From assembly GCF_013167455.1 (NCBI RefSeq), contig NZ_CP038332.1: a DNA stretch of 64,000 nucleotides. One strand, 5' to 3'. Position 1 is the stretch's first letter; each line of letters begins with the position of its first letter. Positions 16,068 to 19,000 of the stretch are shown here, piece after piece. The position numbers are program-made. This DNA comes from Escherichia coli O157:H7 (GTDB lineage: Bacteria; Pseudomonadota; Gammaproteobacteria; Enterobacterales; Enterobacteriaceae).

Positions 16068-19000
16068 TTAAGGGAAATTCGCATGTTGTATACAAAAGTC
16101 AACTTTATTGATGCAACAGGATATACCTATTGCTGGGATAGATACTACAGACAAAAAATACTAAGGGGTTCCAAGCCGCAACTGACGATGCCGTTGAGTG
16201 CTGCGCAGACCTGAATATTCCCTTCTTTGTGGATGTCAGAAACAAAAAGCTGGTCTTCTGGTTTGTACGTGTTGATGACGAAGGGTATCCTGAAATAGCC
16301 CGCTGCACGGAGCGGGAGTTTGCGACCATTCTTGCCGGTATCAGCGCCGGCGGCATGTACTGCCCGGAGTGTGGCACGGTTCACTGGCCGGACGGAGTTC
16401 CCCCGCCCTTCTGATGCTTCCCCGTTTTGCCGACATTTTTCAGCAGGGAAACCGCTGGCTTAACTGGCTGGAGAAACAACCGGAAGGTTCAGTGCGTCCG
16501 GTAGTCATTGAGTCTGTGACAAAAATCATGGCCTGCGGGACCACGCTGATGGGGTACACACAGTGGTGCTGTTCATCTCCGGACTGCAGCCACATAAAAA
16601 AGGTCTGCTTCCGGTGTAAAAGTCGCTCCTGCCCGCACTGCGGAGTGAAGGCTGGCGCACAGTGGATACAGTATCTGCTGAGTCTGGTTCCCGACTGTCC
16701 GTGGCAGCATATTGTGTTCACACTTCCCTGCCAGTACTGGTCCCTGGTGTTCCACAACCGGTGGTTACTGGCAGAGATGAGCCGCATTGCTGCGGATGTG
16801 ATACAGGAAATCTGCCGCCAGGCAGATGTGCGACTACGAACTCGAACCACAATCTGCCAGTTGCGCCAAATCTGCTGAACCAGACGTTCGCTCCTGCAGC
16901 ACCAAATCAGGTCTGGGTGGCGGACCTGACGTATGTTGCCACACAGGAGGGATGGTTGTACCTCGCTGGCATCAAAGATGTTTATACGTGCGAAATTGTC
17001 GGCTACGCCATGGGAGAGCGCATGACAAAAGAGCTGACAGGTAAAGCCCTGTTTATGGCGCTCAGGAGCCAGCGCCCACCTGCCGGGCTAATCCACCACT
17101 CTGATCGAGGTTCACAGTACTGCGCATACGATTACCGGGTCATACAGGAGCAGTTTGGTCTGAAAACATCAATGTCGCGTAAAGGTAACTGTTACGACAA
17201 CGCTCCGATGGAAAGCTTCTGGGGAACGCTGAAAAATGAGAGCCTGAGCCACTATCGTTTTAATAACCGGGATGAAGCCATCTCAGTAATACGGGAATAC
17301 ATTGAGATTTTCTACAATCGTCAGCGTCGTCACTCTCGTCTGGGGAATATCTCCCCGGCAGCCTTCAGGGAAAAATATCATCAGATGGCTGCTTAAAAAA
17401 AGAACAAATGGTAGTGTCCGCTATTGCCAGTACACCTCACCGGACCTGGTGATACCGGATGCGCTGGCAGCAGAAGGAAGCAGTAAACGGGACTGGAATC
17501 GCTTCCTGGACAGTCATTACCGGCGGGGCTGGAATGTCAACGTATCCCGGGTGATGGATAACGCCACACATGTGGCGGTGTACTTCGGCTCTTACCTGAA
17601 AAAACCGCCGGTGCCGATGAGCCGTCTGGAGCACTATGCTGGTCAGGATGAAATAGATCCATTTAATTGACGGCGGTGCACTCATGGCACGCAGGCAGTG
17701 TTGAATAAACATCCGTTTTTGGGTGTTTTTTTAATCTTTTTGGGATTTAAATTCCTATCGATCAAGATCATAACTCGCATATCTGTTCTTTTTATGTATA
17801 TCTATATCTATTTTTGTGACGAGTTCAAACCACAATGTTCGCACTCCCCATGCTGCGTTATGAAACATTTCCGCAACGGCTATAGAGTCTGTATTAACTG
17901 CTTCAGTCATGTAGTCGCTAATACGTTCAGCGGTAATTTTCGTTATTTCATCGTAATTCATTTTATCTCCTACAAGATTATTTAAATATCTGGCCTGATA
18001 ATAATGTTCCAGAATTAATATCTGCAGGCTATGTTAAGTTGTCCCCACACACAATCTACCTGTTTTCTCGTGTGTGCCACAGGCGCAATACATAAATAGT
18101 CTGGCCATTAAGTTCGTAACGGATTTCGTACTCGCCAGCAAAAATCCGTCTGACCTCCCTGGGTTCAAACTGAAATAACTGTTCCCCCATACGTGGATGA
18201 GTTAACAGAATGACCGGTGCCTGTGTCAGGGACTGTACCGTTCTGGCGGCAGCAGGTTTACTGGCTAGCACCAGAAAATCATATAACCGCGCCAAATCAG
18301 AAAGCGCTTTACTGCTCCACTTCAGTTCCATCAGCGTGGCACCGGTAACGGATTGTCAGTACTGAGGCTGTCCGCCCAGGCCTGTACAGCCTGATGGTCA
18401 ATAACCTGTCCGGATGTCACATCGTCCAGGGCTTCCAGCGTCAGGCGATTACGCTCCTCCTCCTGGGCAAGCCATGCAGAAAGCGCCTGTTTGATAACCC
18501 AACCCCGGGAGCGTTCCAGTCTGGCGGCCATCTGGTCGACTTTATCAGCCATAGGTAATGGCACATGCGCGGTAATGACTTTTGTTGCTTGTGCGGTATT
18601 GTTTTTCATTTGCATATCCGATTAGTCGTTAATCATATTTAATCATAGTGATTACTTTCAGACGGAACAAGGCAAATAATGCGCGTCAGCGCATGTAAGG
18701 CGGTATACGGAGGTTACATGTAGCACAGGTGTAAAACCGCCGAAGCCCGGCGTAAGCCGGTACTGATTGATGGATTTCACCTTACCCCCCCCCAGCCCTG
18801 CCAGACCATACCCGCTTTCAGCCATGAGAGAGTTTATGTGCGCGGTCGGAGTGGTCCCGACGAGGGTTTACCCGAAGTCGGGGCGTATCTCCGCGTTAGC
18901 GAGCCCTCAGGGCCGCTTACGAGCGTGTACTGAGAACGTTCAGCCAGAAGACTGACAGCGATGATGATGCTTAGTTACAACATTCATAATTAAAAGCGAC

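Follow-up and report, generated by a model that had tools for sequence, protein, structure and literature searches.

Between katP and the RelE/ParE-CopG toxin-antitoxin pair that is followed by the RepFIIA replicon, the 64,000-nucleotide stretch of Escherichia coli O157:H7 DNA analyzed here (hereafter the window; contig NZ_CP038332.1, assembly GCF_013167455.1) contains a tract of transposase sequences that raises two questions: does it represent two joined elements or a single unusual transposase, and did it have a part in the arrival of katP? The first-pass annotation had described an IS91-family transposase gene split by an inserted, same-orientation segment of an IS3-family orfB, and had proposed that this nested decay marks a recombination hotspot which probably delivered katP. 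The locus is very probably a decayed IS91-family rolling-circle insertion sequence (IS) carrying the 3' half of an IS600 that was once inserted in its tnpA gene. It is ordinary, non-functional IS debris, and it was already known. The window is a pO157-type plasmid, the locus region is 100% identical to E. coli O157:H7 pO157 plasmids, and the Sakai pO157 record (AB011549, 1998) labels the genes IS91, IS600 and IS91 (BAA31831, BAA31830 and BAA31829). In the RefSeq pO157 records the Prokaryotic Genome Annotation Pipeline (PGAP) marks the pieces as pseudogenes: the 5' part of tnpA as “IS91 family transposase, missing C-terminus” and the middle piece as [quoted passage not shown]. The additions made here are limited to the base-level junctions, a 449-bp deletion, an intact oriIS end, and a less decayed state of the locus in pO26-type plasmids.

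Nucleotide alignments were run against two references: the complete 1828-bp IS91-like element of plasmid pRM9975-2 (record L004, positions 2779-4606), with orf121 and a 395-amino acid TnpA, and a complete 1264-bp IS600 copy with a CCC duplication at its flanks (record L011, positions 297-1560). The junctions were defined base by base (Table 1), and the identities between the pieces and their elements are, judged from the alignments, far above chance. The domain models gave the same picture: Zn_Tnp_IS91 (Pfam PF14319) matched 16369-16878 (E 3e-20, 72.4 bits, cut-off 26.3), rve (PF00665) matched 16662-17396 (4.8e-26), as did rve_3 and rve_2, and Y2_Tnp matched 17302-17670 (2.9e-06). With the NCBIfam models the outer two pieces were IS91-family and the middle piece IS3-family (NF033516, 244 bits, cut-off 160). 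The IS91 fragments scored 100.1 and 34.3 bits with NF033538 (transpos_IS91), under the cut-off of 125 because they are partial (291.5 for the intact relative). The arrangement first proposed, IS91-type segments separated by a same-orientation IS3-family orfB, was therefore borne out by Pfam, NCBIfam and the DNA identities. Pfam gave no match on the minus-strand open reading frames (ORFs) 16440-16850 and 17437-17712, which were treated as mechanical, or on the neighboring 68-amino acid ORF.

Table 1. Pieces, junctions and neighboring genes of the locus. Positions are those of the window; “reference” is the pRM9975-2 IS91-like element.
Feature	Position	Strand	Evidence or remark
IS91 left piece	16183-16830	+	99.4% to reference 223-870
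IS600 piece	16830-17439	+	99.7% to IS600 655-1264
IS91 internal piece	17440-17654	+	100% to reference 1057-1271 (L004 3835-4049)
IS91 right end	17655-17762	+	100% to reference 1721-1828
Junction of katP upstream DNA and IS91	16183-16185	+	TGA, ambiguous: first 3 bases of IS629 or IS91
orf121 3' part, codons ~46-121	16183-16414	+	aligned to L004 orf121 2867-3232; mechanical ORF 16229-16414
tnpA 5' fragment, codons 1-139, zinc-binding N-terminal domain, pseudogene	16414-16830	+	PF14319; NF033538 1.3e-28
tnpA internal fragment, codons 202-273	17440-17654	+	Y2_Tnp match
Junction of the 449-bp internal IS91 deletion	17654/17655	+	reference 1272-1720 missing
Terminal 108 bp, including the oriIS end ...GGGATTTAAATTCCTATCGAT	17655-17762	+	100% to the pRM9975-2 element
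CAAG target tetranucleotide (5'-CTTG on the other strand)	17763-17766	+	next to oriIS
Small hypothetical gene, 68-amino acid ORF, cut by IS91	17755-17961	-	beside the RelE/ParE-CopG pair
katP (catalase-peroxidase)	13842-16052	-	neighbor, outside the IS remains
IS629 copy, first 278 bp lost	12322-13353	- (orfB)	adjoins the cytochrome b562-katP module

The same alignments, together with the reading frames, decided between two joined elements and a single contiguous transposase in favor of two. The three coding pieces share a strand and their mechanical ORFs overlap at the junctions, as might be expected of an IS91-IS3 fusion protein, but tnpA is read in frame 1 (from 16414) and the IS600 orfB (16662-17396) in frame 0, a stop at 16876-16878 closes the tnpA frame 16 codons past its entry into IS600, a further ORF holds the third piece, and each piece matches a different known element at 99-100% identity. 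TnpA, moreover, lacks its HUH motif and 122 C-terminal codons. A fusion transposase was consequently rejected and can be given practically no credence. As no open frame crosses the junctions, the pieces are pseudogene fragments, and with no linking frame and no HUH motif a working transposase is not encodable at the locus.

The IS91-family remnant extends over 16183-17762 and is wider than the 16369-17670 reported initially. Its left 222 bp, which would have held terIS and the beginning of orf121, have been lost: homology to full copies begins at reference position 223, orf121 is reduced to its 3' 231 bp, and the truncated end adjoins the DNA upstream of katP, the start codon of which is 131 bp away from the junction. 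The start of tnpA had been placed at a GTG at 16369, but the true start is at 16414: the sequence TGATG at 16412-16416 combines the stop codon of orf121 (TGA, 16412-16414) with the ATG of tnpA (16414-16416), which share one base, and this overlap is a conserved IS91 feature (PMC13181058). At the left IS600 junction, 186 bp of IS91 (reference 871-1056, codons 140-201) are missing, and the HUH motif HPHIH (H157-H161 of the intact 395-amino acid relative) falls within these codons; its absence is a result of deletion and decay, and is no sign of another family. To the right of IS600, IS91 resumes at reference position 1057, reading CCGGACCTGG..., and this fragment keeps the catalytic Y249-x3-Y253 motif as VAVYFGSYLKK. 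The fragment had been taken for the C-terminal part of the transposase; it is internal, and beyond it, across a 449-bp deletion that had been overlooked, follows the right end of the element, which is non-coding. Lost in this deletion are tnpA from codon 274 through codon 395 with its stop, plus the next 79 bp, and the junction shows no meaningful microhomology.

The right end of the IS91 remnant is intact: at 17749-17766 the oriIS end reads ...AAATTCCTATCGAT, immediately followed by CAAG. Five IS91-type copies with unrelated flanks end at the same terminal base, followed by CAAG or GAAC, and IS91 is known to target 5'-CTTG and 5'-GTTC, the last 82 bp of the element plus the tetranucleotide being enough for oriIS function (PMC13181058). 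In related plasmids free of IS91 (L008 and L010), homology to the window starts at 17764 and continues onward, which together with the shared oriIS terminus identifies the right end as a true insertion junction. The 68-amino acid ORF of the interrupted gene owes its last four codons and its stop to the IS91 end. PGAP marks the homologues of this gene in L008 and L010 as truncated at the same point.

The middle piece, estimated at about 530 bp at first, measures 610 bp. It is the 3' end of IS600, in the same orientation as tnpA, and the first 654 of 1264 bp have been lost; it comprises 567 bp of orfB coding sequence (stop at 17396), with the whole DDE region, and 43 bp up to the right inverted repeat, which is intact (17400-17439, ending ...ACACCTCA). 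The left inverted repeat is absent at the locus, and the fragment is unable to transpose or to make transposase. The left junction with IS91 has a single common base (G at 16830). On the right, CCG (17440 onward) presumably represents the right-hand copy of the target sequence duplicated by IS600; the left-hand copy is gone. Of 5,426 complete E. coli genomes, 283 have the right IS600 junction and 276 the left one; the difference of 7 may stem from IS629 insertions or deletions close by that are specific to certain strains. The genomes listed with these junctions carry them on pO157-size plasmids, several from O157-labelled strains.

Another trace of IS600 is found 21 kb away in the window, a solo 25-bp left end at 38580-38604 (100% to IS600 1-25). 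It is not complementary to the fragment at the locus, since positions 26-654 would still be lacking, and its flanks contain no IS91 sequence. A perfect tandem array with a 7-bp unit, TGTGAGG x 9.1 (38522-38585), runs straight into this solo end, the unit repeating the opening bases of the terminal repeat of IS600 (TGAGGT). The length of the array varies among pO157 plasmids (a 281-bp query covers 239-344 bp), and it thus behaves as a variable-number tandem repeat; it may be one of the loci used in multiple-locus variable-number tandem repeat analysis of pO157.

A less decayed form of the locus was found in pO26-type plasmids (L006, L014 and L015, from O26 and O111:H11), in which the order is cytochrome b562 plus katP, a complete IS629, and an IS91-like element. 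IS629 is the element that joins katP to IS91 in this form. The IS91-like element is truncated at reference position 176, has an intact 395-amino acid tnpA, and contains neither IS600 nor the 449-bp deletion, whereas the 2,834-bp cytochrome b562-katP module is 100% identical in the window and the pO26-type plasmids. The IS600 and the two internal deletions, absent from the examined pO26-type plasmids, are for that reason assigned to the pO157 lineage. In L006 the junction reads ...GCAAC, IS629 (1310 bp), GACTTC..., and then 47 further bp of IS91; the window junction, GCAAC, TGA, CGATGCC, is the same arrangement less IS629 and 44 bp of IS91, with TGA at both ends of the missing part. In enterohaemorrhagic E. 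coli (EHEC), IS629 excision dependent on the IS excision enhancer (IEE) produces adjacent deletions and microhomology end joining (PMC9943667), and the 16183 junction most likely arose by an excision of this type. The flanks of the IS629 between katP and IS91 in the pO26-type plasmids are unequal (AAC and GAC), so that the link between katP and IS91 would have been made by an IS629-associated rearrangement and not by a simple insertion.

Between the window and the pO26-type IS91 there are four differences in the 648-bp left piece (16236, 16238, 16399 and 16762), vs. none in the 2,834 bp of the katP module; three of the four are window-specific and lie in the orf121 remnant. Gene conversion between IS91 copies, or chance, may account for this imbalance, the events being too few to interpret. 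Plasmid pO26_PV0838_1 also carries a complete IS600, and a full IS91-like copy head-to-tail with a diverged element (84-92%; L019 15182-18604), the oriIS of the first element adjoining the CGAG/terIS of the second, a tandem which might be what is expected of rolling-circle elements.

These observations suggest the following history. IS91 would have inserted at CAAG in a small backbone gene, and an IS629-associated event would then have trimmed its left end and set katP alongside, a state which appears to survive in the pO26-type plasmids. In the pO157 lineage, IS600 would have entered IS91 at position 1057 (target CCG), and a deletion over its left terminus would have taken 654 bp from IS600 and 186 bp from IS91, or 189 bp with the left 3-bp copy of the duplicated target included, before the ends were rejoined at a 1-bp overlap; the most economical cause would be breakage at the left end of IS600, with resection to both sides and end joining. 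The IS629 that separated katP from IS91 would have been lost with 44 bp via the TGA microhomology, following the pattern of IEE-dependent excision, and the 449 bp would have been removed by a further deletion. The relative order of the events from the IS600 insertion onward cannot be set. The idea of an IS91 gene split by an insertion thus stood insofar as two elements are joined, but the split is not clean: only half of IS600 is present, and 186 bp and 449 bp have been lost.

Several observations weigh against this account. The empty site of the related plasmids is TAAG and not CAAG, and a canonical target must be assumed in the pO157 ancestor (the backbones diverge by ~7%). The left junction predicted for a full-length IS600 within IS91 was found in 0 of 72,556 plasmids (synthetic query, at least 80% coverage), and with no such intermediate the order of insertion and then deletion is inferred, not observed. 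Of the target duplication of IS600 only the presumed right copy survives. Finally, the overlap is just 1 bp at the left IS600 junction and nil at the 449-bp deletion, so that the mechanisms given for both deletions are guesses.

With respect to katP, the proposal that nested decay delivered the gene found no support in that form: in the pO26-type plasmids katP lies beside an IS91 with intact tnpA and without IS600, so the IS600 insertion and the decay came later and are irrelevant to the arrival of katP. Two other routes were weighed. In one of them katP came as a module flanked by IS629, through a composite transposon or homologous recombination in IS629, and IS91 was a bystander. In the pO26-type plasmids the 2.8-kb module is bracketed by two inverted IS629-type copies with their left ends facing it, the IS629 copy of the window adjoins the module on its far side, and IS629 is highly active in this area, with three further sites within ~770 bp in other O157 strains; a double crossover in IS629 and IS91 would also yield the observed arrangement. 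Nevertheless, the outer flanks (CAT and GAC) include no matching 3-bp duplication, the left pO26 copy is just 93.7% identical to the window copy, and IS629 alone leaves the exact oriIS boundary on the right, in two contexts, unexplained. This route is plausible but tentative, falling somewhat short of an even chance. In the other, the left-truncated IS91 acted in the manner of the ISCR elements (insertion sequences with common regions), and one-ended rolling-circle transposition from oriIS carried katP, cytochrome b562 and IS629, which is unlikely.

The case for one-ended transposition begins at the right boundary. The unit of katP, IS629 and truncated IS91 occurs in two plasmid types, and the homology between them stops exactly at oriIS, after which there are two different canonical targets, CAAG in pO157 and GAAC in the pO26-type plasmids, where GAAC is part of a relE that is uninterrupted in L018 and otherwise intact. 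katP is on the terIS side, which is the side mobilized, the pO26 copy has an intact tnpA, and pO26_PV0838_1 contains three IS91-like copies with identical TnpA (WP_000937603.1). Orf121 and terIS normally enforce correct termination, and their loss favors one-ended events (PMC13181058). On the other hand, a one-ended insertion should leave the left half of the interrupted target gene at the far end of the inserted DNA, and neither Sakai pO157 nor pO26_PV0838_1 contains it anywhere: the window and all of Sakai pO157 lack the sequence found to the left of the empty site in L010 and L008, and all of pO26_PV0838_1 lacks the 5' half of relE and its phd partner (L018). Crossing-over within IS91 on one side and IS629 on the other would give an equal picture, both plasmids being rich in these repeats, the unequal IS629 flanks (AAC, GAC) mark an IS629-mediated rearrangement, and the four differences in 648 bp of IS91 vs. 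the identical katP module hint at separate histories. Transfer or recombination based on IS629 is rated the more likely of the two routes. That the katP-linked IS91 moved the module between EHEC plasmids, into relE in the pO26-type and into the small gene beside RepFIIA in pO157, is doubtful; were it true, the intact pO26 version could still mobilize katP today, and the pO157 copy would have been silenced afterwards by IS600 and the deletions.

The description of the region as a recombination hotspot held in one respect, since the area is IS-rich and polymorphic in its IS629 sites, while no role of IS91 in moving katP could be demonstrated. Complete IS629/IS1203 copies, each of 1310 bp with a 3-bp duplication, are present in other O157 strains (L013, L001 and L002) near ~16170, 16310-16312 and 16935-16938, all three sites being empty in the window. 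The remnant has the look of a landing pad on which IS629 is tolerated, and of a source of polymorphism between strains. On the far side of katP, the junction of IS629 and the module (13352/13353) lies two bases off the complete IS629-type end in the pO26-type plasmids. The identity of only 93.7% between the copies on this side indicates different IS629 variants in the two plasmid types.

Sakai pO157 (AB011549.2) aligned to the whole window at 99.7-100% identity in reverse orientation, with a gap at 12321/12322 (~56 additional bases in Sakai) and a second break at 54845-55235 (~2.8 kb in Sakai vs. ~0.4 kb in the window); these breaks show that the window comes from a different pO157 isolate.

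The value of the locus is modest, that of a historical marker: the junctions at 16183, 16830, 17439/17440 and 17654/17655 define the pO157 lineage, and the pO26-type arrangement shows that the link of katP to a left-truncated IS91 predates the divergence of the two plasmid types. The wider interest lies in whether an IS91 lacking terIS moved a virulence gene as ISCR elements do, which the data allow but do not show. A text search of the literature for IS91 together with katP, the scope of which did not extend to the primary pO157 papers, returned only IS911 or unrelated surveys.

Compared with known systems, the Sakai and PGAP annotations concern one and the same locus, with the identical three pieces and 99.9-100% identity of the window to Sakai pO157, but they record overlapping ORFs or pseudogenes, without the base-level junctions, the 449-bp deletion, the intact oriIS or the pO26-type comparison. 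The middle piece resembles IS600 in its 99.7% identity over 610 bp, its rve (DDE) core in OrfB, and its intact right inverted repeat ending in CA; it differs in the absence of positions 1-654, with the left inverted repeat, orfA, the programmed -1 frameshift site that leads into orfB, and the beginning of orfB itself. The outer pieces share with IS91 the oriIS terminus ...TTCCTATCGAT followed by CAAG (5'-CTTG), the orf121/tnpA overlap, the zinc-binding domain and Y249-x3-Y253. They differ from it in several respects: terIS (the 5'-CTCG cleavage site and palindrome), the orf121 start, the HUH motif and the C-terminal third of TnpA are missing, IS600 lies inside, and the element is dead. Insertions of the IS91 family make no target-site duplication, and here the left end and the target flank on that side are missing from the plasmid. 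DNA identity to the copy named IS91 by PGAP (L007, used as comparator in place of the type sequence X17114) is only ~92%, and with an isoform threshold of 95% (PMC13181058) the element is a related isoform.

ISCR are IS91-like elements which lack terIS and capture adjacent genes, for example resistance genes. The pO157 copy differs from them in having no functional transposase, and no mobilization event has been demonstrated, but the layout is similar: oriIS is intact, terIS is missing, katP is placed as cargo on the terIS side, and in the pO26-type plasmids tnpA is intact as well.

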